33,936 bases of DNA from a virus. The stretch lies in UHGV virus genome UHGV-0334900, one strand, 5' to 3'. How positions within the stretch are numbered: position 1 is the stretch's first letter; the number at the start of each line of letters is the position of its first letter. Shown one piece after another: positions 1 to 33,936 of the stretch. The position numbers and the translations under genes are program-made. The notes below the pieces were generated by a model that was not told the origin of the DNA, did not search any database, and saw nothing but the letters and a program-made list of their open reading frames with translations.

Positions 1-293
1 AAACGAGGCGGTAGGCATCACGCAGGGCTTTCTTCCATGGTTCCCCGGTTACTTCGTCAAGGCAATCAATAGCTCGGCGGGGAAAACCGCGGTCAATCAG
101 GCCAAGGCGTTCGTATGCCGCTCGGCGTTCTTCTTCCCGCTGCTTTTCAGCAGCCAGCGCTTCCGCTTCCAGCTCTTCAATGCTTCTTCCGTCGTCCTCG
201 GCAAGAAGGGTGATGGATTCCAGGAGGCTTTCAAGATTTACTCCTTTCAGTCCTCCCTGGGGTTTAATGGGTTCGTCAATCTTTCCAGAGGTC
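1..293 (-). CDS. Hypothetical early-region protein, 5'-partial at the window edge (ATG at 293-291)
   Basis: Open minus-strand frame from ATG at 293 to beyond position 1. Translation reads MTSGKIDEPIKPQGGLKGVNLESLLES...EKQREEERRAAYERLGL... It is co-oriented with the early operon and its start overlaps the stop of 276..1043. It is not in the ORF track because it is truncated. Confidence 0.35.
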
Positions 294-1043
294 ATCTCTT
301 CTTGATGGTTTAGTCGTTGATTTTGTCGGGGTTCCCGCGGCATTGGCGGGTTTCAGACCGGGCGCGTCCGCATTGTTCCGGGCCCAGGTGGCAGCGTATT
401 GGCGAGCCATGGGCCGCCAGTCCGCCAGGGGAACGCCGTGCCTGTTCCTCCATCCAACGGCGGCCTGCTCATTGAAAAACCGTTCCGCGCACCGGGTCAG
501 CTCGTCTCCGAGCGGGTGCAGAGCCTGGGCGGCCATAAAGCGGTCAACCTCGGTAACGTCCTTCGGAAATTGGCAAACCTCGCGCCCGGTTGTAGTTGTA
601 GTAGTATTATTATCTTCTCTTCTCTTCTCTGGTAACGGTTTTTGTAACGGTTCAAGCGTTACATTTTCGTTACATGTTTTTGCAACTCGCTCATGATGAG
701 CTTTTCTGCTATTCGCGACACGGCGGTTCGTATTGGCCCTATTCTTGGCGGATTGGCCGTTGTGGCGGTCAAAATTGGGGATTGAAAGGAGGCCCTCGCG
801 TCCATTCAACCAGCCGACTTTGACAAGCCCAGCGGCGAAGCCGGGGCAGAATACGAGACGGTCGAGAAACGAATTTGTAACGGTAATGGCGTTACCAGAA
901 ACGGATTGTTGATCAGCCCAAATCCAAAGGCGAAGCAGCTTGCCGACAACGGCATCCTGATCAATTCCAAGGATGCCGGCCAGCTTCACCACTTCGGGTT
1001 TGTCCGGTGTCGTGTGTTCCACCTTGATCCAGTCTCCGGCCAT
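276..1043 (-). CDS. Phage replication initiation / replisome-organiser protein (Phage_rep_org_N / DnaD-like N-terminal domain)
   Basis: N-terminus MAGDWIKVEHTTPDKPEVVKLAGILGI...GKLLRLWIWADQQSVSGNA matches the conserved W-I-K opening and helix pattern of phage replisome organisers. Central T-rich linker, C-terminal basic region. Position in the early operon beside the methyltransferases. Confidence 0.55.
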   Translation of the reverse strand: MAGDWIKVEHTTPDKPEVVKLAGILGIDQDAVVGKLLRLWIWADQQSVSGNAITVTNSFLDRLVFCPGFAAGLVKVGWLNGREGLLSIPNFDRHNGQSAKNRANTNRRVANSRKAHHERVAKTCNENVTLEPLQKPLPEKRREDNNTTTTTTGREVCQFPKDVTEVDRFMAAQALHPLGDELTRCAERFFNEQAAVGWRNRHGVPLADWRPMARQYAATWARNNADAPGLKPANAAGTPTKSTTKPSRRDDLWKD

Positions 1044-3029: not shown

Positions 3030-3414
3030 TGATCCCTCCTTTCAAACACGATTTCCACCTTGCCGGCGTGGGCCAGGTCATGCACGCGGTCAATCCCGGC
3101 GCAATCCAGCGTCCGGTCGTCAATGCCCAGGGCTTTGCAAGCCCGTCCAGATACGCCTTGCAGCGCGCCAGGCAATTATCCGCGTCCGGCTTCGGTCCCT
3201 TGAAAAACCAGACCACCCGGTAATGCGTCGGTTGCATCCTCCGGCCATTCAGGGCTTCACAAGTCCTGCCCCAGGCTATATTCCGGGCGCGGCTCTTGGC
3301 AGCCGTCTTTTTGTACCCGGCTACAACGGCCCCCCTCTGTGTGAGGGGAGTCTTGGCGTTGGGCGAAAGTTCCCGCGGCGTGTGGGGCAAGGTAATGGTT
3401 AGCGTGGTCATCAT
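3022..3414 (-). CDS. rusA: RusA-family Holliday-junction resolvase
   Basis: LTITLPHTPRELSPNAKT matches the RusA N-terminal ITLPwPPs-NryW block. PDADNCLARCKAYLDGLA matches the RusA catalytic Asp region (DLDNLxKaxxDAL). 130 aa. Confidence 0.75.
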   Translation of the reverse strand: MMTTLTITLPHTPRELSPNAKTPLTQRGAVVAGYKKTAAKSRARNIAWGRTCEALNGRRMQPTHYRVVWFFKGPKPDADNCLARCKAYLDGLAKPWALTTGRWIAPGLTACMTWPTPARWKSCLKGGIND

Positions 3415-4628
3415 GCCTCACCTCCTTCCACTTCCTTCACGGATCCCTTCGTGGTTTTCGATTCGCCATACTCCGCCAGCAACTGCCGCAGCCATTCGCG
3501 GCTGGCCTTCGTGGTCGCCTTCGGATCCGCCGCTTTACGGGCCGCGTGAACCAGTCTGTCCAATTCCGTGATGCCGACCTTGCAGCACCCGGCAAACGCT
3601 TCCGCCGTCACCTCGTCCGGGAACTCGGCATTCAGCGCGGAAAACGCCCCGGAAGGATCCGTCACCGTGAAACTGGTGCGTCCGGGCGCCATCTCAAAAC
3701 CGGGAATCAGGCCGGCGGCCACATCCTGTTCAAACCGGTAATCCACAGCAGCCGCCCATTTCTTTGCCGTCTTCGCCAGGTGGTAAGCCTGAACCTTCTC
3801 GGCAGGGGAAAACAGCTCCCACTTATCCCGGTCCGTAGCAATCAGGGAGGCCTGCTCCACCATGGCCGCGGCCTCGTGGCACACCGCCTTGGCCCGGCAA
3901 TACCGGCAGGCGGCCTCGCTGCAATAGCGCGGGGCATCCGGGTCCACGGCAGCCCTGGCGACGGCAAGAGAATCCTGTTCGGCCTGGCTAATTGCCTCGT
4001 CATCGTAAAACGTAACAGATGCCGGACCAGCCACCCGCGGCTGGATGATAGCCGCGTAAATGCCGTTGTAAATAATCCCCTCTTCATTGGCTTTTTGGGC
4101 CGCCAGCGGAACCAGGGCTTCAAGCTGACGGTTGGCCTCGGCTGAATCCACATCCACGCGGCCAAACTTCCAATCCAGTACCAGAAGATCCGACCCAACT
4201 CTGAACAGTGCGTCCCACTGTCCGGAATACTCGCCCCCTTCAATCCAGTCGGACAAGAAACGGCGTTCTTCGGTGGATACAAGAGAAAAAAAAGCATCGG
4301 GATAATCCAGGATCTTCTCTTTCACACCATTCAGCAGACGCAGAGCACGTCCACAAAGCTCCACCTGCTCATGATTCAGCTCGGCAGACTCATACTCCCG
4401 GCTATTCAGAAAATCATGCCAGGAAAACCCCATTCCTTCTTCGGCTGCATCATCCTTCAAAAGAAGATACTCCATATAGCGGTGCAACAGCGTGCCTTCT
4501 GCGGCAGCCTCGGAACTCTCATCGGGACAGGACTTCTCCATCGTAAACGAGCCGGGGCATAAAGCCAGCCGTCCAAATGCGGACGCAGAGGGCAGCCCTT
4601 TACGTACATCTTCAACAGTATCGGTCAT
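3411..4628 (-). CDS. PD-(D/E)XK / Cas4-like recombination exonuclease (DUF2800-like)
   Basis: D-x(n)-LVLDWKFG nuclease core (the D...E/D-x-K motif). Cys cluster C24 plus CSEAACRYCRAKAVC typical of Cas4/RecB-family Fe-S nucleases. Lies immediately downstream of RecT, the classic exo+annealase pair. Confidence 0.65.
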   Translation of the reverse strand: MTDTVEDVRKGLPSASAFGRLALCPGSFTMEKSCPDESSEAAAEGTLLHRYMEYLLLKDDAAEEGMGFSWHDFLNSREYESAELNHEQVELCGRALRLLNGVKEKILDYPDAFFSLVSTEERRFLSDWIEGGEYSGQWDALFRVGSDLLVLDWKFGRVDVDSAEANRQLEALVPLAAQKANEEGIIYNGIYAAIIQPRVAGPASVTFYDDEAISQAEQDSLAVARAAVDPDAPRYCSEAACRYCRAKAVCHEAAAMVEQASLIATDRDKWELFSPAEKVQAYHLAKTAKKWAAAVDYRFEQDVAAGLIPGFEMAPGRTSFTVTDPSGAFSALNAEFPDEVTAEAFAGCCKVGITELDRLVHAARKAADPKATTKASREWLRQLLAEYGESKTTKGSVKEVEGGEA

Positions 4629-4643: not shown

Positions 4644-5609
4644 CTATCCGATAAAGGGTTGCAGCTTGTCAGGATTGGCCGCCAGCTTTTCCATCTGGGC
4701 GGCATTCATCTCATGCCAGCTCTTCACCTTGTTGCCGCTGGCCTTCGCAATGGCTGCGTTCAGTTGCTCTTCCGTACAGGAAAGAGCCTCCATCAGCCGG
4801 ATGTGGGGCGGCGGAACTTCTACGTCGCCTTTGCCGGGAACCTCCGCGTCTCCCAGCTGCCGCGGGGAGTCAGCAACCTTCTCGGCATCCACAACGTCGC
4901 CCCCGGAAATCTCCCTGGACTTGAACAGGGGCGGCTTAATATCCGGCTGGCTCTTGCCGGCAATATCTTCCGCCTCTCCCTCCACGCTCAACCCGTTCAG
5001 GACTTCCGGGCACTCCGTCCGGGCGAAAAACGCCGCAGCCCTGTACCTGTACATCAGTTCCGGCATGGTGGCCCACTTGCTACCGTTCTTTTCCAGCCAT
5101 TTTTCTTTCTTCGCCATTTCTTCCGTCACCCATACGCCGCGGCACTCTTCGCCGGTTTCCTTCTTCGTGGCCACCAGGCGCATTTCGACCAGCCTTTCAC
5201 CAGCGCGGCGTTCCTCGAACTTGATGCCGGTAAACTTTCCGCAGGTCTGGATAAGAGCAATGGCGAACTTGCCCGACCAGGAAGGAGTCCCATGGACCAC
5301 GTAAAGGTTCTGCATCACCATCAGCGGATCCATCCTCAGCCGTAAAGCGGTATTGATAGCGATAAAGCAGGAACCGGGGTTGTTTTGGTAGGCAGCCGGA
5401 ACCATGCTGGAGGAGGCAAGCATTTCGGCGGCCTGCGTCGCCATCTGGAACTGTTCACTGTTAGCAAACGCTCCCAGAACGGACAGTTGCTGTCCTTGCT
5501 CTTGTAAAGTCAGGGATTCTGTTGTAGGGGTATTCATGTTATTGGTATTCACATTCATGTTATTGATAACAGGCCGGGAGTCAGGGCCAACTGACCCCGG
5601 CCAACTCAT
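4644..5609 (-). CDS. recT: RecT/Red-beta family single-strand annealing protein
   Basis: Core MVMQNLYVVHGTPSWSGKFAIALIQ plus a basic/acidic C-terminal tail. Low-complexity N-terminus (NNMNVNTNNMN). Paired with the downstream nuclease. Confidence 0.7.
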   Translation of the reverse strand: MSWPGSVGPDSRPVINNMNVNTNNMNTPTTESLTLQEQGQQLSVLGAFANSEQFQMATQAAEMLASSSMVPAAYQNNPGSCFIAINTALRLRMDPLMVMQNLYVVHGTPSWSGKFAIALIQTCGKFTGIKFEERRAGERLVEMRLVATKKETGEECRGVWVTEEMAKKEKWLEKNGSKWATMPELMYRYRAAAFFARTECPEVLNGLSVEGEAEDIAGKSQPDIKPPLFKSREISGGDVVDAEKVADSPRQLGDAEVPGKGDVEVPPPHIRLMEALSCTEEQLNAAIAKASGNKVKSWHEMNAAQMEKLAANPDKLQPFIG

Positions 5610-7086: not shown

Positions 7087-7419
7087 TCATAACTCGTTAT
7101 TATTTTTAACCTTCGTCCTAGTGATTCTCGTCGTTCCTGACACGATGATTTGTCCTCCATCCGGTTTATAAATCACATACCCATATATTGGAATATCTCC
7201 CCTAGATCCCATCCTGAACGCCTCAACACAGTTTGCATATCCCGTTGCAAAAACAACATCGGGAATGCCGTTCTGTTCAATTTTAATTTCCCATGTTGGT
7301 GTCTCTTTTTTAGGGGCTTTTTTCTGATTATCGGCTTGTTTAACAGGTTGAGGCTCGGAACCCTGATCGCAACCTGAAAGAACAAGCCCGGACAAGACGA
7401 GGGCGAACAGAGCTTTCAC
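7087..7419 (-). CDS. Small secreted lipoprotein, candidate superinfection-exclusion protein. The track ORF 7087..7473 is probably over-extended
   Basis: Lipobox LVLSG-C preceded by hydrophobic VKALFALVLSGLV. In-frame GTG at 7419 is preceded 6 nt upstream by GAAGGAGGT, the only strong Shine-Dalgarno seen in the window. The mature part is rich in basic residues and Pro. Confidence 0.55.
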   Translation of the reverse strand: MKALFALVLSGLVLSGCDQGSEPQPVKQADNQKKAPKKETPTWEIKIEQNGIPDVVFATGYANCVEAFRMGSRGDIPIYGYVIYKPDGGQIIVSGTTRITRTKVKNNNEL

Positions 7420-8216
7420 TTCTTCACCTCCTTCTGTTCGGTTTTCTTCCCAGTCATCCGCTTCAACAGCCAAACTTGACCCTTGGGCGTCAGATACGGA
7501 GTTGCTTTACTTTCCGCTCTTCCGCTCGCGTGTTGGATAATCCGGTAGCTGACACGGAAACGACCGGCTTCCACATGTTCCTGTGACGGGACGTTGCGGC
7601 GATTGCCAACCTTCCCGAGAATGCCTTCATTGCGAAGCAGCTCAAAAAGACGGTTCTGTCCGATTTCCCTTCCATTCTGCGCAAGGACCTTGGCAAATTC
7701 TCCTATCAGCATGCAGCCTTCGGAAACTTCCACGCTCTTTCCGAATTCCGTGTAGGGCGCGTCCTCTTCTATCTTCGCTTCAAGAGACTTCCTCTTGTCC
7801 TGTTCATCTTTGAGAGCTTGGAAGACTTTAAGTGCGTTCTCCGGCTTGGAAATCAGTTCAAGAAGTTTCTCGCCTGTGGCGTAGATGCCGTGTTTGCGTA
7901 TCGTCGGGAGGACTTCTTCAGTTACCCACTTCTTGAACTTCTTCGCCTCCGGCTTGCGGGAGCGGAGAATCAGAGAGTAGAGACCGGATTCGTTGATGAT
8001 GAGAGGTGCGCGACCTCCGTTTTGAGCAACCCCTATACTATAGGGGTTCACTTTATCAATCTCATCATCTTCCAGAATCGCACGCAGGTTATCGGTTCGA
8101 AGATCCAGCGCGTCACAAACATCCTTGGCGACAAACCAGGGTTCGTTGTTGATGATGACTGTCCGGACAGAACAGCCAAGCGCGGCATTGTTGAATGGTA
8201 CTATGTTGTTGTTCAT
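7416..8216 (-). CDS. Phage antirepressor (Bro-N domain plus KilAC/ORF6C-like C-terminal domain)
   Basis: N-terminal FNNAALGCSVRTVIINNEPWFVAKDVCDALDL matches Bro-N (F.f....vR.....gepWFvakDva..Lg). The C-terminal region is KilA-C-like. Second gene of the leftward early operon, facing the repressor. Confidence 0.75.
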   Translation of the reverse strand: MNNNIVPFNNAALGCSVRTVIINNEPWFVAKDVCDALDLRTDNLRAILEDDEIDKVNPYSIGVAQNGGRAPLIINESGLYSLILRSRKPEAKKFKKWVTEEVLPTIRKHGIYATGEKLLELISKPENALKVFQALKDEQDKRKSLEAKIEEDAPYTEFGKSVEVSEGCMLIGEFAKVLAQNGREIGQNRLFELLRNEGILGKVGNRRNVPSQEHVEAGRFRVSYRIIQHASGRAESKATPYLTPKGQVWLLKRMTGKKTEQKEVKK

Positions 8217-8221
8217 GTTGT

Positions 8222-8413
8222 TTATCGGTTGAAGGTTTTGGTTTGCTTCGGCTGCGTTTTGCTGTCGGTCGCATCATGAGCCAAGATGCGGAGGGTCTGA
8301 ATAATGGCCTCGCTCAGTGGCAAGTTGTCCCTGACTGAAAGGGCCATGACTGACCCGCTAGCCTTAGGAGACTCAGCGAGTTTTTGGATTGGTACTTGGA
8401 TGGTATCTATCAT
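8222..8413 (-). CDS. Small hypothetical protein at the Cro position (first gene of the leftward early operon)
   Basis: 63 aa, immediately downstream of the divergent promoter region and opposite the cI-like gene. No clear HTH motif was recognised. Confidence 0.3.
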   Translation of the reverse strand: MIDTIQVPIQKLAESPKASGSVMALSVRDNLPLSEAIIQTLRILAHDATDSKTQPKQTKTFNR

Positions 8414-8544
8414 GGGTGTGTGATGATTTGGTTGGTTGATGCCCTCTTTTTATCATTGTTTGATTGTAGAGCAAGACAAAAATATCACTGTATGCTTGTT
8501 TTTTTCATCTTGCTTGTGTCATTAAACGATGATAATACATCGGC
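8414..8544. promoter_or_regulatory. Divergent lysogeny-switch intergenic region (putative PR/PRM-like promoters and operators)
   Basis: 131-bp AT-rich spacer between the divergently transcribed minus-strand 8413 ORF and plus-strand 8545 repressor gene. Direct repeat TGCTTGT at 8493-8499 and 8511-8517, 18 bp apart. GCAAGACA at 8471-8478. Confidence 0.4.
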
Positions 8545-8922
8545 ATGCACACAAAAGAAGAGATAGATCAATGGCTTAAAGACATCGGAAAAACCCGGCA
8601 ATGGTTGGCGGACCAATGCGGAGTGAAATACCTAGTTGTCAACAACTGGTTTTCCAAAAGCCGCACTATCCCCAAAAAGGCTCTGATCATTATTGACAAC
8701 CTAATGAACCAACCCCAACCTGCCGACGATAGCCAAATCTCTATCGCTGATCTTGATATCAACCTCAAGGTCTCGCATGATAAATTCCTCGAATTCAATA
8801 ATTATGCGAAAGCCTGCGGCATGAATATCGTGGACTGGATTATTTACGTCTTGGAATATGCAGGAGACAATAAAGAACTCCTTATGAAACGGTTACAGGA
8901 AGAGAAAAACAAAGGGGAATAA
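8545..8922 (+). CDS. XRE-family HTH repressor (cI-like prophage repressor)
   Basis: HTH TRQWLADQCGVKYLVVNNWFSKSRTIPKKAL (Q..LA...GVs...vs.We.g...P.). Divergent from the early operon, co-oriented with the integrase and followed by a hairpin terminator. AT-rich codon usage. Confidence 0.65.
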   Translation: MHTKEEIDQWLKDIGKTRQWLADQCGVKYLVVNNWFSKSRTIPKKALIIIDNLMNQPQPADDSQISIADLDINLKVSHDKFLEFNNYAKACGMNIVDWIIYVLEYAGDNKELLMKRLQEEKNKGE

Positions 8923-27126: not shown

Positions 27127-28239
27127 TTAACGTTGGGCGGAGACGATGAAGCCCTCTTCGGTCGCCTTCTGGTAGGCGTCATAGCGCTTCATGCCTTCCT
27201 TGATGAGTTCGTTCACACGGTTGTTGAATCCGTCAATGGATTCCTTCTTGCGGAACGGATCAGGGGGATTCAGCGTCGCGCGGCGGTTCAGAGGCGTCCT
27301 TTGCGGAAGCTTCTTCTGCTCCGGCTGCTCCTGTTTCTGCGGGCCCGCCTGGCGGTTGAGCGCGCGGATAAAGGCGTTCAGCGCGGCGGGGCTTTCCCGG
27401 AGAGAGTTTTTCAGCTCTTCCCGGCGTTCTTCCGTGAATTCCTCGCGTTCTTCCTCGTCCAGCGCGTTTTCGTACGTGCTGACGGCGTCGTCCACTTCGG
27501 CGTTCACGTGGTCTTTCTCACGCTTTTCCAGCGAGAGCAATTCATCAAGTCGTCCGAGGATCGCCCTGCTCATGTCGTCGGTGCCGTCAAATTCGACATC
27601 CAGCTTGTCAAGCAGGGAATCGAACAGGGCCCGCTGGGCCTTGTCCATTTCCTTGGACGGATATTCTCTATCGTCGTTGTCCATATTGGTGTTCTGGGTT
27701 GTTTCCCCCTCTTCGGGGCTTTTGGGTTCGCCCCCGACCTCGTCGGAGGCGGGGGAAGTCTGTCGGTTGACCAGAGGCCGCTTTCCCTTGATGCGTGGAC
27801 GGTTGGTCAGGGCAAAGCCGGTCAGGCGTGACGGTCGGTAAACTCCGTCCGTCAAGGTCATCCCTTCGCCATATTCGGTGGATGATTGCGTGTATTCCTT
27901 GTCCTGCAGCATCTTTAGGCCGCGCGGCGTCCATTCAATGAACCCGTAGAGTTCTAGCGTGCCGGAAGGGTCGCGGTAGGTGTCCAGCCTCTTGAGCCAT
28001 CCGAGGGCCCGAGTGTCGCGGGAAAGGTCGTGGCTCAGGTGGTCGCCGTCGATGAGCATCCCTGGGCCGTCAAAGGTGCGGTCGTTGAAGTCGTCCACCA
28101 TGTCCTGGACGGCCTGCTCGTCGATGCGCAGCACGGCGGGTCCTTCGCCGTAGTCGACGTCATGGTCTCCGCTCTTCTCGACGTGGAACCAGCCGTTGGC
28201 GGGTCGGGACAGGTCATTGATTTGTTTCGTACTGATCAT
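27127..28239 (-). CDS. Mu gpI-like prohead protease fused to scaffold
   Basis: N-terminal ANGWFHV...LIDGDHLSH...RALGWLKRLDTYRDPSGTLELYGFIEWTPRG matches the Mu-like prophage I protein (protease) pattern. The C-terminal 200 aa is a highly charged coiled coil (EEEREEFTEERREELK) typical of scaffolds. Confidence 0.65.
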   Translation of the reverse strand: MISTKQINDLSRPANGWFHVEKSGDHDVDYGEGPAVLRIDEQAVQDMVDDFNDRTFDGPGMLIDGDHLSHDLSRDTRALGWLKRLDTYRDPSGTLELYGFIEWTPRGLKMLQDKEYTQSSTEYGEGMTLTDGVYRPSRLTGFALTNRPRIKGKRPLVNRQTSPASDEVGGEPKSPEEGETTQNTNMDNDDREYPSKEMDKAQRALFDSLLDKLDVEFDGTDDMSRAILGRLDELLSLEKREKDHVNAEVDDAVSTYENALDEEEREEFTEERREELKNSLRESPAALNAFIRALNRQAGPQKQEQPEQKKLPQRTPLNRRATLNPPDPFRKKESIDGFNNRVNELIKEGMKRYDAYQKATEEGFIVSAQR

Positions 28240-29662
28240 CGGTAAATCCTTTCATGAGGCCGGCGTAAATCATTTGCTGCAGCTGTTCATAGGCATCGGG
28301 CGGAATGAGGGCTTTTTCCGGCTCCCTGTTGGCCGCCGCCGTCACCGGAATGGGGTCCCGCGTGTCCTCGATCGACATGCCGATCTTTTCTTCGATTTCG
28401 GTCTTCTCGGGGCGGACGCCTCCGTCGGCAAGCGCGGCGATTTCCTCGGCCTTCTGCAGCGGCGTCTGGACGGTGTCAAAGGTGATGTGGAGGCGGGCCA
28501 GCGGTTCGCCGTCTCCCAGGACAAGCGGGCTGATGGCGGTGTTAAAAGCTTCGGCTACTTTGGAGCAGACCGCGGAGACGACCGAATTCCAGCTGTCCGT
28601 GTGCGCTCCCCCGGCCAGCGTGCCGGAGCCTGATTCATTCAGGACGGTCAGAGTGCCGGCCATGACAAACCGCACCTGGTCCTTGTCGGACATGTTGATT
28701 CGGGACAGGAAATAGTTTTCGTTGATGTTGGAGGCTTTCAACGGTTCTGCAGTGCAGCCGGGAGGCAGCACGATGGAGGCTCCCGATTTGAGTTCCTCGC
28801 ACGCTCGTTGCAGCGCGACCATGATGTCGGGGCTCGCGTCCTTCGGAGCCGTGATGATGGCCGGGGCGCTCCCGTAGCGGTCCATGTGATTGTCCCAGGT
28901 GACTTTGGCGTGATTCCGCTCAAAAGAGGCGCGGGTTGCCGGGAAAAGAATGGGGTTCCGGTGCTCCATGACCACGAGCGTTTCATCTTCCACGCTTTCG
29001 CCGGTGTCGACGCCGATGTAACATTGAGGGTTAAACTGCCATTCGTTCAACTCTCCGGGGCGGACCCAATAGCGTTGGGGGATGAATTCAAAGCGGCGGC
29101 CCCAGGCGTCCTCAATGTATTGGAGGTGGGCGTAACCGTAAAACATGGCGGAAGCCAGCTGCCCAAAGGCCTGCTGAAGTCCGGTGACGGAGTGATAGAA
29201 TTCTTCCAGCGCGTTTTGCTGACGCTGGGCTTCGGGGCTGTCGTCCGCCGCGTCAATCTTCCAGCCCTGCATGGAGACGCTTTCGATAAGCCGGGAATAG
29301 AGCATGCCCAGGAGACCGTCCGAGTAGATGACCTCGTCCCAGATGAGCATTTGTCGGGCAAAAGCTCCCCGCCGCGCTTCGTTCCGGGCGTCAATCAGGG
29401 TTTGCAGGTCGGCTCCCTGTAACGGATCCCAATATTCAAACCATTGGGGCTGGTTGGGCTTCCTGCTCTGTTCCGTCAAGGCTCGCCGGGTGAGTTCCGT
29501 TTCAAGCTCCTTGATTCTGGTCTCCTGTTGGGCGACCAGCTTCGGGGCGTTGAGGATATTTTTGACGGCGTTAAACCTGAGGCTAAAGAAAAGGTGGTTG
29601 CAGGGGAAGGAGTTGGACCTTCGATTCAGGGACAGGAACCCCGCGTGATACCGTTTCACCAC
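28214..29662 (-). CDS. Portal protein (Mu gp29/DUF935-like)
   Basis: 482 aa between TerL and the protease/scaffold. Overall resemblance to DUF935 portals. The N-terminal 30 aa are low-complexity and the true start is uncertain. Confidence 0.6.
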   Translation of the reverse strand: MVKRYHAGFLSLNRRSNSFPCNHLFFSLRFNAVKNILNAPKLVAQQETRIKELETELTRRALTEQSRKPNQPQWFEYWDPLQGADLQTLIDARNEARRGAFARQMLIWDEVIYSDGLLGMLYSRLIESVSMQGWKIDAADDSPEAQRQQNALEEFYHSVTGLQQAFGQLASAMFYGYAHLQYIEDAWGRRFEFIPQRYWVRPGELNEWQFNPQCYIGVDTGESVEDETLVVMEHRNPILFPATRASFERNHAKVTWDNHMDRYGSAPAIITAPKDASPDIMVALQRACEELKSGASIVLPPGCTAEPLKASNINENYFLSRINMSDKDQVRFVMAGTLTVLNESGSGTLAGGAHTDSWNSVVSAVCSKVAEAFNTAISPLVLGDGEPLARLHITFDTVQTPLQKAEEIAALADGGVRPEKTEIEEKIGMSIEDTRDPIPVTAAANREPEKALIPPDAYEQLQQMIYAGLMKGFTDDQYETNQ

Positions 29663-29715
29663 CCTGCGATTAATTACATATCTTCATATATTGATACGTT
29701 GATATATTGTCAACC

Positions 29716-31062
29716 CTAATATCTCCCGTAAGCGCGTTTTGATGACACGGGCCGGGCGTACCAGGCTCCCAGCGTCCGCGCCAGTCCGCTGTTCCGGCGC
29801 GCGTGCCAGGCCATCACAAGGGCGTCGGCCCGGTCAGGGGAACGAACGCCCCGCTTTGCCATATCTTCCTTGCTTTCAATGCGGACGCGGCCTATTGCAT
29901 CCGTCTGGAGCCGCGGCGCGACCAGCTGTTCAATCGTGTCCTCGTCAATGTCGAGGATGAGTTCTTTTTCCTCAATGGCGCGCGCCAGGGCCCGCCATGC
30001 CTGGGCTCGCAGATTGACAAAGGCTTGTGTGTCATCCGCCGGAAACCCGCCGCGGTAGGAGTGCACCGGAAAGCCCTCGGCGCGGAAGTCATCAATGATG
30101 GGGAGCCCTAGGCCGTCGCCGTCGGCAAAGATGCGGTCGGCAGAGATGCCGAGTTCGGCGGCCTTCCGGCGGAAACGTCCGCGCGCTCCTACGGTGTCCG
30201 GGTCGGACCAGTGGTCGGCGATGAAAAAACGGTTGCCCTGCCCGGCCGCAAAGACGTTTTCATCGCCTCCCGCGGCAAAGTCGAAGCCGCCGCAGGTCTC
30301 TCCGGTGTCCAGGAAGGGAGGCGGGTTGTTGACCAGCTCCATGAGAGCGCGGCGGGAAATGACGGATTGTCCGTCAAGGTCGGTGAATTCACCAAGGATG
30401 GCCGAGCGGTAGAAGGAGGACTGCTCACCATATTCTTTCTTCAGGCGTTCGGCCTTGCCCGGGTCGTTGATTTCGATGTGCGGGCAATCCTCGTATTTGA
30501 CGCGGATTTTGTAGTAGAGCGATGAATTTTTGTGAAAGCAGTCGTAGAAGGTGCCGGAATCGGCGCCCGGCGACGAGGTGATGAACGCGTGAAAGAGCGT
30601 GCAGCGGGAAACGGCGGTGAAGATGGAGTCCGGAATGGTTTTGGCCTCGTCCAGGACGTAAAAGACAGGATCCACGTCGGGCGAGATTTTTGGATGCCAT
30701 CCTTCCGCACGTCCCGCGTTGTCGGTGGAGAAACCCACGGCAAAGCCTCCCTCCGGCGTGCGGATCTCCGTCTTGTTGAAGGTCCAGCCGGAAAAGAAAG
30801 GATTGTCCATGTAGCGGCGGAGCGCGGGAAAGAGCTGCTTTTCCACCTGCATCCACGATGAGGACGTAACGGGGACCTGTCCCCGCGGAAAACAGGTGAG
30901 AAAGTACAGGATGGCGGGAGCGATGCAGTTGCTTGTCTTGCCGGATCCGTTAGGAGCGACCAGAGCCACGCTTTTCCCTCCCAGGGTCAGCTTGCCCAGG
31001 GACAACGCCTTGATGGCCTCCACCTGCCATGGATAGGGGTCAAGGCGGAGGATATGGCGCAA
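29716..31062 (-). CDS. terL: Terminase large subunit
   Basis: Walker A VALVAPNGSGKT. Walker B/catalytic VFYVLDEA. A C-terminal RNaseH-like nuclease region with conserved Asp residues. 448 aa. Confidence 0.85.
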   Translation of the reverse strand: MRHILRLDPYPWQVEAIKALSLGKLTLGGKSVALVAPNGSGKTSNCIAPAILYFLTCFPRGQVPVTSSSWMQVEKQLFPALRRYMDNPFFSGWTFNKTEIRTPEGGFAVGFSTDNAGRAEGWHPKISPDVDPVFYVLDEAKTIPDSIFTAVSRCTLFHAFITSSPGADSGTFYDCFHKNSSLYYKIRVKYEDCPHIEINDPGKAERLKKEYGEQSSFYRSAILGEFTDLDGQSVISRRALMELVNNPPPFLDTGETCGGFDFAAGGDENVFAAGQGNRFFIADHWSDPDTVGARGRFRRKAAELGISADRIFADGDGLGLPIIDDFRAEGFPVHSYRGGFPADDTQAFVNLRAQAWRALARAIEEKELILDIDEDTIEQLVAPRLQTDAIGRVRIESKEDMAKRGVRSPDRADALVMAWHARRNSGLARTLGAWYARPVSSKRAYGRY

Positions 31063-31095: not shown

Positions 31096-31611
31096 TTAGG
31101 GATGGAGTTTGCCGGCGATGGTTTCCAGAGCGGTTTTCTCGTCTTCCTGCAGCTGGGCGAGCTGCTCAGGGTCCAGCGTGATTTTCCGTTCCAGCGGCGC
31201 TCCGGGAACGCCGGCGACGTCCTGACGGACCCGGTCTCCGAATTTATCAGGAGCGAAGCGGGCGGCGACTTTCAGCCGGGTTTCAATGGCGAGCTTCTTC
31301 GCGGCGACGGAGGCGGAGCCGCATTCCGGGTCAAGGGCGACTTTCGCGGCTTCGTCGGCCAGCTCCTGGCAGGCGTCAATCATAGCTTCCGACTGCGCTT
31401 CCCGCGCGCGTTGAATGAGTTTGGAAAACTCCGGCTTTGTTTCACGCCAGTTCCAGACCGTCCAGACCTCCGGCATGTGGTCATCGGAGCAGATGGATTT
31501 CATGGTTTCACCGTCGGCCAGGCGGGAGGCTATCTCGGCAGCCAGTTCCTCTGTGTAGAGGCTCGGCCGCCCCGGTTTTCTTTTGGTGGTAGGTTTATTT
31601 TTCCTGCGGTT
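31096..31611 (-). CDS. terS: Terminase small subunit. The conserved N-terminus lies upstream of the first ATG (31503) without a canonical in-frame start
   Basis: KRKPGRPSLYTEELAAEIASRLADGETMKSICSDDHMPEVWTVWNW...AREAQSEAMIDA...RLKVAARFAPDKFGDR matches a widespread TerS family (GRP.kYTpEl...Ic.rla.GeslrsIc.d..mP..stvf.W...ArEaqAdalade). The GRP..YT block is encoded at 31578-31560, 5' of the ATG. Confidence 0.6.
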   Translation of the reverse strand, partial: NRRKNKPTTKRKPGRPSLYTEELAAEIASRLADGETMKSICSDDHMPEVWTVWNWRETKPEFSKLIQRAREAQSEAMIDACQELADEAAKVALDPECGSASVAAKKLAIETRLKVAARFAPDKFGDRVRQDVAGVPGAPLERKITLDPEQLAQLQEDEKTALETIAGKLHP

Positions 31612-31674
31612 CTATCATAGGAGATAACGGATATTCAAATCAAGCGCGTTGTTTGTTCTTGATTCGGGGCGCGT

Positions 31675-32211
31675 GTGTCCCAAACTTTGGTCGAGATGAA
31701 ACAATGTCCCATCTGCGGAAAGGATGTTCCTCCGCGCGCGGGCAAGCGCGACAGCGTGTACTGTTCCCGGGCCTGCCTCCAGGCTCACTATGCGGAGGCC
31801 TGGGAAACGCTCACATGCCCTGTGTGCGGGAACGTATTCCGGGCCCAAAAACTGTGGCGCCGTCAATACTGCTCTGCGGAGTGCGCCAACCGCGCCCAGC
31901 GAGGGAGGAAAATCACGTCCGCAGCGTTTTTGGAGGCCTGCCGTCATCGTGGCGTTTGGGGACCTCGCAAGCATCCGAGGACCGGGAAATTTGAGACGAA
32001 TTGCCACGCCAAAGTCTGGCGGGTGGAGTCGCCGGAAGGAGAAGAGGTAACGGCACGCAATCTCAAGCTGTACATGGTCACCCGTTTTGGCGAAACCGAA
32101 GGCAAAAAGATTTATAAACTCTTGACCTGCGCCGCCTCCCGTTTCCGCAAATCGGGAAGAGGCACGGGGGCCGGATGGCGGATCCTGGAGGCTCCATCCG
32201 TCCCGGAATAA
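31675..32211 (+). CDS. Tandem zinc-ribbon protein (two CPxCG-x(10-13)-YCSxxC modules) with a His/Cys-containing C-terminal domain
   Basis: CPICGKDVPPRAGKRDSVYCSRAC and CPVCGNVFRAQKLWRRQYCSAEC, then CRHRGVWGPRKHPRTGKFETNCHAKVW (a possible HNH-like or zinc-knuckle region). Plus strand, opposite to the flanking phage operons. Confidence 0.45.
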   Translation: MSQTLVEMKQCPICGKDVPPRAGKRDSVYCSRACLQAHYAEAWETLTCPVCGNVFRAQKLWRRQYCSAECANRAQRGRKITSAAFLEACRHRGVWGPRKHPRTGKFETNCHAKVWRVESPEGEEVTARNLKLYMVTRFGETEGKKIYKLLTCAASRFRKSGRGTGAGWRILEAPSVPE

Positions 32212-32250
32212 AAAAGGGGCGGCTTCGAAAAAAACCGCCCCTTTTTAAGG
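32209..32250. terminator. Strong bidirectional rho-independent terminator
   Basis: AAAAAA-GGGGCGG-cttcgaaaaaaa-CCGCCCC-TTTTT. A-run before and T-run after a 7-bp GC stem. Overlaps the TAA of the zinc-ribbon gene. Confidence 0.7.
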
Positions 32251-32394
32251 GAAATGGGCGTTGCCGCCCGGATGATCTTGCGATCGTTTTAATCCACAGC
32301 CCCGAAGGGCTGAACGTTCAGAAAGAACGCCTCCTCCTATCATTTTTTGATGGAGGACGACAACGAAAAAAATCTTCTTTTTTCATTTTTTCTC

Positions 32395-32423
32395 TTGCAA
32401 TACTAAACAATGTTTAGTATATT
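32395..32423 (+). promoter_or_regulatory. Sigma70-type promoter (-35 TTGCAA, 17-bp spacer, -10 TATATT) with an embedded perfect 19-bp palindromic operator
   Basis: TTGCAA at 32395-32400. TATATT at 32418-32423. The palindrome TACTAAACA-A-TGTTTAGTA at 32401-32419 fills the spacer and overlaps the -10. Preceded by an A/T-rich UP-like tract. Confidence 0.55.
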
Positions 32424-32493
32424 GACCTTGTTGACGGGAGGTAAGGGACCGAACGAAGACACAATCCAAAACCAAATCAGAAAGAACAAGACA

Positions 32494-33213
32494 ATGACTA
32501 AAAACGAATTAACAGAAATTCTCCAACTGCACGAAATGTGGCTGAACGAGGAAGAAGGCGGCGCTCAGGCCAAATTTGAAGACCTCGACCTCAGGGGGCT
32601 CGACTTTAGGGGTGCTAACTTAATCAAGGCTGACTTTAAGGACGCCGACTGTTCCGGAGTTGATTTCACAGGGGCCGACTTGAGATGTGCCGATTTCACC
32701 GGGGCCAATCTAACCGGGGCCGATTTCGCCGGGGCCAATCTGAAATGGGCCAATTTTTACAAGGCCCATGTAACCGGAGCCAGATTTAACGGGGCTATCA
32801 TAGACTGCGCCGACTTTAGGTGGGCCCGCGGGATTGTCGACCTGACCGGAGAGAAAACAGAAACACAATCCAAAAGAAAGACCAAGAAAATGAACGACAA
32901 CAAAATCATCACCACGGAAGACGGCGAAGAAATCAATCTGAGCGCGCTTGAACGCGAATTCGGCAGCTATGATTTTGAAGGACACACCTACTATGCTGCT
33001 CGCCAAATGGAATTAACCAATCGTCTTTTTGCCGGATGCTACAACGATGCGGAAGAAGGAGAGGAATACATCTCTGAATACTCCGCGCCCGGATATGACG
33101 AAAACGGCAACCCCGTGGAAATCTTCATGACTTTCACGCAGGTGAAAGGTGAAGAGATAGACCCGGAAAACCTTAACTGGTTCCAGGACTCCGACCGCGT
33201 TGAAGCCCTCTAA
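32494..33213 (+). CDS. Pentapeptide-repeat protein (Qnr/MfpA-like right-handed quadrilateral beta-helix, DNA-mimic type) with an acidic C-terminal domain
   Basis: N-terminal ELTEILQLHEMWLNEEEGGAQA, then 14 or more consecutive A(D/N)LxG-type pentapeptides (FEDLD LRGLD FRGAN LIKAD FKDAD CSGVD FTGAD LRCAD FTGAN LTGAD FAGAN LKWAN FYKAH VTGAR FNGAI IDCAD FRWAR). The track start at 32410 lies inside the promoter's -10/operator, so ATG 32494 is preferred. Confidence 0.7.
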   Translation: MTKNELTEILQLHEMWLNEEEGGAQAKFEDLDLRGLDFRGANLIKADFKDADCSGVDFTGADLRCADFTGANLTGADFAGANLKWANFYKAHVTGARFNGAIIDCADFRWARGIVDLTGEKTETQSKRKTKKMNDNKIITTEDGEEINLSALEREFGSYDFEGHTYYAARQMELTNRLFAGCYNDAEEGEEYISEYSAPGYDENGNPVEIFMTFTQVKGEEIDPENLNWFQDSDRVEAL

Positions 33214-33221
33214 CCATGATT

Positions 33222-33245
33222 CCAGGGCGGTGCATGCCGCCCTGG
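33222..33245 (+). promoter_or_regulatory. GC-rich intercistronic hairpin between the pentapeptide and HTH genes
   Basis: CCAGGGCGG-TGCATG-CCGCCCTGG, a perfect 9-bp stem with a 6-nt loop and no T-run. A possible attenuator, processing site or protein-binding site. Confidence 0.45.
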
Positions 33246-33252
33246 CACAGCT

Positions 33253-33453
33253 ATGACTATTCAAGAATTTGTTGATTGGGTCCAGTCCAGATACCATTTG
33301 CGATCCAAAACATCCGCTGTCAAAAAGGCTGCGCAGATGTTGAGAGTGACGGAAATGGCGGTGTGGCAATGGTTGGGCGGGTCCAGAAAAATGAGCCCGT
33401 CGATGGAGCTGCTGATGGAGCTAATCACCCGTCACGGATTGCCGGACGAATAG
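33253..33453 (+). CDS. Cro/YdaS-like small HTH transcriptional regulator
   Basis: 66 aa. AAQMLRVTEMAVWQWLGGSRKMSP fits the Cro/CI-type HTH (helix, turn, recognition helix ending in W). Last gene of the plus-strand island. Confidence 0.5.
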   Translation: MTIQEFVDWVQSRYHLRSKTSAVKKAAQMLRVTEMAVWQWLGGSRKMSPSMELLMELITRHGLPDE

Positions 33454-33456
33454 ACC

Positions 33457-33490
33457 TATACGAGATTCCAGGGTATACGAGATTCCAGGG
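33457..33490. repeat. Exact 17-bp tandem duplication TATACGAGATTCCAGGG x2 filling the convergent intergenic region
   Basis: Copy 1 at 33457-33473 and copy 2 at 33474-33490. The TAG of the HTH gene is at 33451-33453 and the TAG of the DnaC-like gene at 33491-33493. A third GATTCCAGGG lies at 33217-33226. Confidence 0.6.
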
Positions 33491-33936
33491 CTATTCCCGG
33501 GGATGGTAATTGATCTCGCGGTAGGATTTCCAATCACAGGTGATGATGGTGCCGCAAAGGTGGATGCGGGAAACAATGGCCGGCCCGAGTCGATCTTCAA
33601 GGGCGGCGGGGCTGTAGTTGGAGATGATGATGGTCGGTTTGCCGTTCTGGTGCCGATAGTCAATGAGCCTTTCCAGCGCGGCGCCTGCAAAGTCCGTGTC
33701 CTTGACCTCGTGATACTCGTCCAGCACCAGAAGATACGGGGCCTTGTATCGCTTCATGACATCGGATTCCGAGCCGTTGCCGTTAAACGTCTCTCTCAAG
33801 TCCATCGTGTAATCATAGGCCTTGGTATAGAGGACGCGCCTCTTTCGCCTGTACATGAGGCGTCCAAGAAACGTGCTCAATACCGTTTTCCCGGTGCCGT
33901 ATCGCCCGTTCAGTACAATAATACTCCCAGGCGTCA
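33491..33936 (-). CDS. DnaC/IstB-like AAA+ replication ATPase (helicase loader), 5'-partial (runs off the window end)
   Basis: Walker A GRYGTGKTVLS encoded at the window edge. Walker B LLVLDEY. Sensor IIISNYS. The frame is open to position 33936. Confidence 0.6.
   Translation of the reverse strand, partial: TPGSIIVLNGRYGTGKTVLSTFLGRLMYRRKRRVLYTKAYDYTMDLRETFNGNGSESDVMKRYKAPYLLVLDEYHEVKDTDFAGAALERLIDYRHQNGKPTIIISNYSPAALEDRLGPAIVSRIHLCGTIITCDWKSYREINYHPRE

Follow-up and report, generated by a model that had tools for sequence, protein, structure and literature searches.

The human-gut virus genome UHGV-0334900 (33,936 nt, referred to as a whole as the window; human-gut metagenome contig ENA UADP01000051) carries, at positions 32395–32423, a putative sigma70-type promoter whose spacer is filled by a perfect palindrome. 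This palindrome is probably an operator, at which the promoter would be occluded by a dimer of the product of the last gene of its own operon, a 66-aa helix-turn-helix (HTH) protein termed HTH66. The analysis shows the anatomy of the locus, the significance of the palindrome, its conservation with symmetric compensatory changes, the association of operator and recognition helix, and the XRE/Cro fold of HTH66. Activity of the promoter, HTH66 as the protein bound, its dimeric state and a repressing effect are inferred from comparison of this locus with those of related phages. In the proposed mechanism, host RNA polymerase would initiate at about G32430 and generate one transcript, comprising a 64-nt leader, an acidic accessory cassette (here a pentapeptide–Cmod fusion) and then HTH66. 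As HTH66 builds up, a dimer would occupy positions 32400–32420, spanning the spacer and reaching into each hexamer, and the bound dimer would block the polymerase, resulting in negative autoregulation by promoter occlusion. It is proposed that occlusion by HTH66 would allow a burst of expression after infection and later a low, self-limited level, including in the prophage. The features concerned are as follows.

32366–32394, plus strand: A/T-rich, UP-element-like tract upstream of the -35 hexamer
32395–32400, plus strand: -35 hexamer TTGCAA, of which TTG alone is invariant (variants TTGCAA, TTGCGT, TTGAAT, TTGCAT, TTGCTA and TTGATA)
32400–32420, no strand: class A operator, the proposed HTH66-dimer site, a perfect palindrome ATACTAAACA-A-TGTTTAGTAT
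32418–32423, plus strand: -10 hexamer TATATT, with T1, A2, T5 and T6 invariant across operator classes (TATATT, TAACTT and TAAATT)
32430, plus strand: transcription start predicted from spacing, a G following a T, seven bases past the -10 hexamer
32430–32493, plus strand: 64-nt leader, A-rich, unstructured and non-coding, conserved across all operator classes
32494–33213, plus strand: variable cassette, here a pentapeptide–Cmod fusion, recognized from Pfam and from relatives
33253–33453, plus strand: HTH66, a basic four-helix XRE/Cro-type HTH protein of 66 aa, the constant last gene and proposed autorepressor, characterized by structure model and homologues

The palindrome and the conserved promoter block

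Both hexamers and the 17-bp spacer between them (32401–32417) can be read directly from the sequence. TTGCAA-17-TATATT resembles the TTGACA and TATAAT hexamers of sigma70 promoters at the 16–18 bp separation characteristic of them, and agrees with the consensus at 9 of 12 positions. Amongst 22 distinct promoter variants from related phages, CTTG of the -35 region and T1, A2, T5 and T6 of the -10 hexamer are invariant, while the last three bases of the -35 hexamer and the spacer sequence change; the spacer is 17 bp long in all of them, with no insertions or deletions. Transcription starts mapped by Cappable-seq in Akkermansia muciniphila, the host, display a -35 and a TATAAT-like -10 bias, with a Y–R step at -1/+1 (PMC4782308). 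The host therefore uses promoters of this type, and a sigma70-type model suits it.

The palindrome, TACTAAACA-A-TGTTTAGTA at 32401–32419, is likewise a direct reading of the sequence. One further complementary pair extends it to 32400–32420, a perfect 10+1+10 palindrome of 21 bp, which consequently overlaps the last base of the -35 hexamer and the first three bases of the -10 hexamer. The window contains two perfect palindromes whose arms are 10 or longer and separated by no more than one base, compared with a mean of 0.07 in 500 shuffles, none of which contained two; about 6e-4 would be expected in the 282-nt intergenic region. The dyad symmetry is thus above chance, and the half-sites are separated by about one helical turn. 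An earlier interpretation made from the letters alone (the sequence-only reading) had described a 9+1+9 palindrome in the spacer and judged it improbable by chance; both statements are borne out, and the palindrome is even longer than was described. A second copy of the 21-mer, with up to 3 mismatches allowed, is absent from the window, a complete phage genome, including the region upstream of the small terminase gene terS. Half-site matches with at most one mismatch number 6 against 2.0 expected; two of these belong to the site itself, and 6 were also reached in 2 of 100 shuffles. The other perfect 10+1+10 palindrome in the window, AACCCCTATA-C-TATAGGGGTT at 8028–8048, lies within the BRO-N/KilAC antirepressor coding region (7416–8216, minus strand). 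Its chance improbability equals that of the first, and it has no additional half-sites in the window.

Relatives were sought in viral and metagenome collections, the promoter, the leader sequence and the pentapeptide protein serving as queries; this yielded approximately 100 locus entries, with some contigs fetched repeatedly. All share a block of about 110 bp, composed of a T-run, TTG, the palindrome, TAnnTT and the 64-nt leader, which runs from TTTTTTCTCTTG (32386–32397) to the ATG. Upstream of TTTTTTCTCTTG, L006 and L007 carry unrelated sequence and are identical from there on. At the other end, the first gene behind the leader is exchanged amongst relatives precisely at the ATG. Wherever downstream sequence was fetched, an HTH66 homologue is the last gene; it is encoded by itself or forms the first or final module of a larger multi-HTH protein. 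To judge from these loci, promoter, operator, cassette and HTH gene are co-inherited as a single module. The palindrome is, as the earlier proposal presupposed, conserved in related phages, at the same position in the approximately 100 entries and in four versions. With key hexamer bases invariant and spacer versions that are symmetric palindromes, the placing of an operator inside the promoter by the sequence-only reading is supported.

Operator classes and the recognition helix of HTH66

The spacer exists as four versions between the invariant TTG and TA..TT, at a fixed position and of constant length. These operator classes, with the recognition helices of the associated HTH66 homologues, are as follows.

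Class A, 58 locus entries: operator TACTAAACA-W-TGTTTAGTA; recognition helix always LRVTEMAVWQWL
Class B, 32 locus entries: operator TACTATAAA-T-TTTATAGTA; recognition helix MMRVTEDAVWKWL or ILRVSDILVWKWL
Class C, 7 locus entries: operator TTCTAATCATTGAATGATA; recognition helix LMKVKEITVWEWM
Class D, 4 locus entries: operator TACTATTCA-W-TGAATAGTA; recognition helix LMKVREITIWQWL or LLKVEEITVWQWL

In classes A, B and D the symmetry is perfect, extends to as much as 10+1+10 and has the same centre; these classes differ from one another at half-site positions 6 to 8, where each change is mirrored in the opposite arm. When the two arms were treated as pairs across 22 distinct sequences, with 500 shuffles for comparison, 88.2% of the pair-by-sequence cells were complementary, against 77.1 ± 1.7% after shuffling (none of the 500 as high); with the partner column slid, complementarity was 35–44%. 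The covariation score was 0.261, against 0.080 ± 0.021 (0 of 500 shuffles). Switches from one complementary type to another, with both sides changed, are found in 4 of the 10 pairs (15–23, 16–22, 17–21 and 9–29). Classes A, B and D thus carry the compensatory changes expected of a dimer operator, and the pattern clearly suggests that selection kept the symmetry while the operator sequence changed.

HTH66 has an isoelectric point (pI) of 9.4, and its AlphaFold2 model is a four-helix bundle with a predicted local distance difference test (pLDDT) score of 89. Fold neighbours include the P22 c2 N-terminal domain, DdrO, HigA2, YdaS, N15 Cro, Aca10, Aca7 and C.BclI, with E-values of 0.17–1.9, which indicate the generic XRE/Cro fold only. 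The sole Pfam hint is a weak match to YdaS. The family comprises 7 clusters at 90% identity amongst 5.8 billion proteins and 48 representatives at 50% identity amongst 1.84 billion proteins. On the basis of the model, HTH66 is best described as a putative new family of small XRE/Cro-type regulators.

The recognition helix of the HTH66 homologue tracks the operator class with a single exception, L224. This lends support to the suggestion in the sequence-only reading that the downstream 66-aa HTH protein may be an autoregulator. Classes C and D share an EIT(V/I)W motif in the helix; they also share the inner operator core TCA-W-TGA. A protein of 311–314 aa with four HTH modules, present in class A (L195 and L210) and class B (L171 and L173) relatives, provides a natural control for the association of helix and operator: between the two classes the recognition helices of its first two modules are identical and that of the third differs at one residue, while in the last module, which is of HTH66 type, 5 of 9 helix positions are changed. 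Beyond the locus, the neighbouring DnaC-like gene, at 85% identity or more, is common to 15 class A and 7 class B loci. Since neither this gene nor the HTH gene at the CI position tracks the class, linkage ends at the HTH66 gene. It is proposed that operator and recognition helix may have diverged jointly into at least four specificity classes.

The HTH66 module has been amplified or fused in some relatives (L151, L171, L173, L195, L210, L157 and L166). One form is the four-module protein of 311–314 aa; in another, of 434 aa, an HTH66-like domain at the N terminus precedes many HTH_23-like repeats. In L005 and L006, a paralogue of 196 aa is encoded on the upstream side of the promoter.

Several observations weigh against autorepression by HTH66 at this site. 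Hexamer matches of 9/12 quality occur at background frequency (4 found against 3.0 expected in a shuffled comparison over about 10 kb), so that the promoter call is based on context and conservation and not on the hexamers; of the earlier description as a consensus-like sigma70 promoter, the architecture and spacing are present, while 'consensus-like' was overstated. The class C operator is a palindrome of just 6+1+6, shifted by 2 bp, and is a degenerate site. Two rather different recognition helices serve class B. In L224 (ERZ779880 contig 8557) a class D operator is paired with an HTH protein of class A type; this may be a true recombinant, which would mean a less strict specificity than is proposed here, or an assembly chimera from the metagenome, and the near-identity of the leader (about 75 nt) across classes could support either event. 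Operator, cassette and HTH gene lie within less than 1.5 kb, and alleles of Cmod also track the class, indicating that part of the association reflects inheritance and not function. Few independent evolutionary events underlie the classes and the pairing statistics. More distant members of the HTH66 family (P0009, P0012 and P0013; L185–L188) have no comparable upstream palindrome in the sequence retrieved, or too little upstream sequence. Finally, a stem-loop between cassette and HTH66, described below, could cut read-through into the HTH66 gene.

Other possible readers of the palindrome

The operator could be read by another phage regulator, such as the repressor at the CI position (8545–8922), which would place the operon under the lysis–lysogeny switch. 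The encoded protein is a 125-aa HTH regulator in the classic divergent CI/Cro position, adjoining the antirepressor operon, and lysogeny repressors are known to silence accessory promoters in other phages. However, the class B contig IMGVR 3300045988_177191 encodes this protein at 89% identity, with three substitutions in residues 1–57, and a close homologue was not found in several near-complete class A genomes. In addition, the immunity region contains neither the palindrome nor its half-sites, whereas a CI-type repressor should have several sites there. This reader is unlikely, and the sequence-only reading, which had named a cI-like repressor as an alternative binder, is not followed on this point, the HTH of 8545–8922 being near-identical in the class B phage. 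It is similarly improbable that HTH66 binds the site but activates transcription, or that it acts mainly elsewhere, for example on the late genes, with the operator merely a feedback tap. The operon does lie between the early operon (with the DnaC-like gene) and the late operon (with terS), a common location for late regulators, and where relatives lack the zinc-ribbon gene, promoter and terS are divergent and about 160–400 bp apart. Against this, no activation route is known for a dimer bound between -35 and -10 hexamers on an optimal 17-bp spacer, the site has no second copy in the genome, and in the window about 900 bp and a terminator separate it from terS. One particular form of activation, by a MerR-type regulator, was considered and rejected. 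MerR-type activators need spacers of 19–20 bp; here the spacer is 17 bp in every variant and HTH66 is XRE-type. Activation by spacer distortion is excluded by the optimal spacer length. The zinc-ribbon gene product (31675–32211) was also considered as the binder and rejected, as the gene is absent from several class A relatives.

Binding by a host factor, for example a TetR-family repressor, would couple the operon to host physiology. The same 19-bp palindrome, TACTAAACA-S-TGTTTAGTA, is indeed found 40–65 bp upstream of TetR-family genes in Dyadobacter, Runella, Chitinophaga, Larkinella and Spirosoma; these are Bacteroidota, however, and not Akkermansia. Moreover, amongst closely related phages that share a host species, this place in an otherwise conserved promoter is taken by three to four different palindromes, which makes a host factor an unlikely reader. 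A genome-wide scan with ACTAAACANTGTTTAGT returned at least 120 matches in unrelated taxa, about the chance number and compatible with that expected for a 16-base pattern in 596 Gb. On these grounds a host reader is very unlikely. The symmetry might also serve a nucleic-acid hairpin, for example in an antisense or read-through RNA, and not a protein. A 9-bp stem can form on either strand (-6.6 to -7.1 kcal/mol, z-scores -3.0 to -3.3), and compensatory changes would preserve a hairpin too. Against this, the palindrome sits in the promoter spacer, ahead of the predicted start, its stem is weak and consists largely of A/T, and there is no Rfam match. The 8+8 core of class A is invariant across the 58 entries with the exception of one variant (L210, ACCAAACA), a constraint beyond mere pairing, and its central base alternates between A and T, as expected of an uncontacted dyad centre. 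An invariant core with an A/T flip at the centre fits a protein site better than a hairpin, and the hairpin is most improbable. Occlusion of the promoter by HTH66 is thus the preferred reading.

Outside the phages, GACTAAACAATGTTTAGTC occurs in a non-coding block of about 90 nt that is near-identical in ten loci from at least nine Marinomonas species (L024, L046, L048, L102, L107, L110, L119, L121, L123 and L128), with no adjacent open reading frame (ORF) at the expected position. This block may encode an RNA or represent a regulatory site under conservation.

Cassette, flanking elements and genome context

The cassette consists of one to three genes from at least five families: pentapeptide, Cmod, F10 (85 aa), F13 (102 aa) and a 94-aa N-terminal module. 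The five modules scored are acidic, with pI values of 4.05–5.2 (4.05 for Cmod). In the window, a pentapeptide-repeat module (32494–32889; Pfam Pentapeptide, E=4.5e-23) is joined in frame to Cmod, an acidic module of 107 aa from ATG 32890, via a second copy of the leader (ACACAATCCAAAA at 32863); in relatives the two are separate genes. The stop codon of the pentapeptide gene has been lost here, and the reading frame continues across the second leader as far as Cmod; the same fusion is found in several other contigs. The leader segment ACACAATCCAAAA (32459–32471 and 32863–32875), with AGAAAGA..CAAGA.AATG, precedes both ATG 32494 and ATG 32890; each cassette thus seems to bring a leader copy along with it. 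Besides the pentapeptide module, no cassette protein has a Pfam, PHROG or PADLOC match, and a role in a defence system was not indicated by any meaningful PADLOC match. The model of Cmod (pLDDT 83) has no PDB match with a TM-score above 0.28, and its sole viral structure match is an uncharacterized Salinivibrio phage protein.

The true start of the cassette is ATG 32494. An ORF of 267 aa from ATG 32410, which begins inside the palindrome, was rejected as coding because relatives (L001) carry a 1-nt insertion or deletion in this stretch. The leader is also without predicted structure (fold z-score 0.19) and has no Rfam match. Further elements of the locus are as follows.

32211–32246, no strand: bidirectional intrinsic terminator AAAAAGGGGCGGCTT / AAACCGCCCCTTTTT, an inverted repeat with an A-run and a T-run
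33222–33245, plus strand: GC-rich stem-loop CCAGGGCGG tgcatg CCGCCCTGG, -20.9 kcal/mol, ending seven bases before the HTH66 ATG
33457–33490, no strand: two tandem copies of a 17-bp repeat, TATACGAGATTCCAGGG, at the downstream edge of the module, directly behind the HTH66 stop codon and abutting the end of the convergent DnaC-like gene

The terminator ends the optional upstream gene 31675–32211 and shields the promoter from both sides; it is found in most relatives and is absent from L007. Other lineages carry a different GC stem (GGGGCGGC / GCCGCCCC) at the place of the stem-loop, so that structure is kept and sequence is not. The stem-loop may attenuate transcription or stabilize the mRNA. 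Class A and class B relatives have 1, 2, 4 or 6 copies of the 17-bp repeat. As the sequence beyond it varies, the repeat marks a recombination boundary, and it is possible that it represents iterons or a protein-binding array.

The window is the complete, circularly permuted genome of a temperate phage of about 34 kb, because the DnaC-like gene is split by its ends (residues 100–246 at 33934–33494 and residues 1–98 at 295–2) and relatives are contiguous across the 33936/1 junction. Proteins that cluster with the integrase and with the 66-aa HTH protein carry the name Akkermansia muciniphila in NCBI and UniRef, and the host is assigned to this species accordingly. No blastn match to 31600–33936 was found in the phage GenBank collection. 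Protein-family scans identified the following genes.

276–1043, minus strand: replication initiator
3411–4628, minus strand: exonuclease
4644–5609, minus strand: RecT
7416–8216, minus strand: BRO-N/KilAC antirepressor
8545–8922, plus strand: HTH regulator at the CI position, 125 aa
9674–10861, plus strand: tyrosine integrase
28214–29662, minus strand: Mu-type portal
29716–31062, minus strand: large terminase
31096–31503, minus strand: small terminase (TerS)

The early and late operons are both on the minus strand, and a plus-strand island sits between them, in the order zinc-ribbon gene (31675–32211), terminator, promoter with palindrome, leader, cassette ORF, stem-loop, HTH66 and 17-bp repeats. 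A phage tRNA gene lies at 29598–29668 (minus strand), between the large-terminase and portal genes (Rfam tRNA, 50.8 bits). Between a 63-aa gene (8222–8413, minus strand) and the regulator at the CI position, the region 8414–8544 contains several TATCAYTG-like and TGATGAT motifs. These may be the immunity operators, and they are similar to the operator of class C in related phages (ATCATTGAATGAT).

Comparison with known regulatory systems

The palindrome recurs at putative operators of TetR-family regulators in Cytophagia and Chitinophagia, where the identical 19-bp TACTAAACA-N-TGTTTAGTA also overlies the downstream promoter box of the regulator's own gene. In these loci (L053, L062, L114, L076, L083, L129, L038, L044, L136 and L127) the palindrome overlaps a TAnnTTTG promoter box, and the proteins scanned (L129 and L114) match TetR_N and TetR_C_33; it looks like the autoregulatory operator of a different regulator family. 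Protein family, phylum and promoter type all differ from those of the phage locus, and the identity of the palindromes is most likely due to convergence.

Type II toxin–antitoxin systems such as HigBA and MqsRA, as well as YdaST, share with the HTH66 locus a small XRE-type HTH protein encoded downstream of its partner and palindromes in the operon's own promoter, and HigA2, MqsA and YdaS are amongst the top fold neighbours of HTH66. The partners of HTH66, however, vary (pentapeptide, Cmod, F10, F13 and the 94-aa module) and are acidic, unlike RelE/HigB toxins; there is no constant toxin partner and no PADLOC or Pfam toxin match.

Resemblance to the Cro and CI systems of lambdoid phages (lambda, 434, P22 and N15) extends to the all-alpha Cro/XRE-type HTH and to a dyad operator of 17–21 bp over the -35 and -10 hexamers. 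N15 Cro and the P22 c2 N-terminal domain are amongst the best fold matches of HTH66. Lambdoid immunity classes similarly comprise alternative operator–repressor specificities, in which the outer bases are conserved and the inner bases variable. In contrast to the tripartite OR/OL arrangement, the HTH66 locus has a single site, which lies outside the immunity region, and its accessory operon is antiparallel to the early and late operons. A lambdoid switch has several operators between divergent repressor and cro genes; here there is one site, about 10 kb from the divergent pair at 8222–8922.

The architecture and the proposed regulation agree with those of anti-CRISPR (acr-aca) operons with their Aca autorepressors (Aca1, Aca2 and others), in which a strong phage promoter is followed by small, variable and mostly acidic ORFans and, last, by a conserved gene for a small HTH protein, a dimer of which represses the operon (PMC6765145; PMC13551039). 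The inverted repeats to which Aca proteins bind overlap the acr promoter, and the amount of Aca made by a prophage suffices to keep it repressed (PMC6765145; PMC13551039). The HTH66 locus has the same gene order, operator position and turnover of cassettes, with a small HTH gene at the 3' end, variable small genes and an inverted repeat at the promoter. It differs in having one operator and not two. No cassette protein shows homology or a fold match to known anti-CRISPR or other anti-defence inhibitors; size and acidity fit. Aca10 and Aca7 resemble HTH66 only in the generic HTH fold (E 0.8–1.9). A profile search against all PDB chains, solved Aca proteins included, returned only 2a6c (E=0.029) and did not place HTH66 in a described Aca family, the families covered being those with a solved structure.

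More tentatively, HTH66 might found an Aca-like family that marks an anti-defence locus, with the pentapeptide protein (a possible DNA mimic), Cmod, F10 and F13 as new inhibitors of host defences such as CRISPR-Cas, restriction-modification or BREX, and with the four classes as naturally orthogonal repressor–operator pairs. We regard this wider interpretation as possible but doubtful. If it is correct, the four classes could be used as genetic parts in a species with few tools. Should the autorepression model itself be right, the HTH66 gene together with the palindrome would be a guilt-by-association marker by which genes with accessory or anti-defence roles could be found in prophages of Akkermansia, and the matched operator–repressor variants could act as orthogonal switches. 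Very little is known of how phages of A. muciniphila, a prominent commensal of the gut, are regulated; under the same model, the unit described here would be the first defined promoter, operator and repressor for this phage group. The locus would also illustrate cleanly, in nature, how operator and recognition helix can change jointly while the surrounding promoter stays fixed. Set beside the systems compared above, the design principle is already well known, and it is the regulator family that is new.

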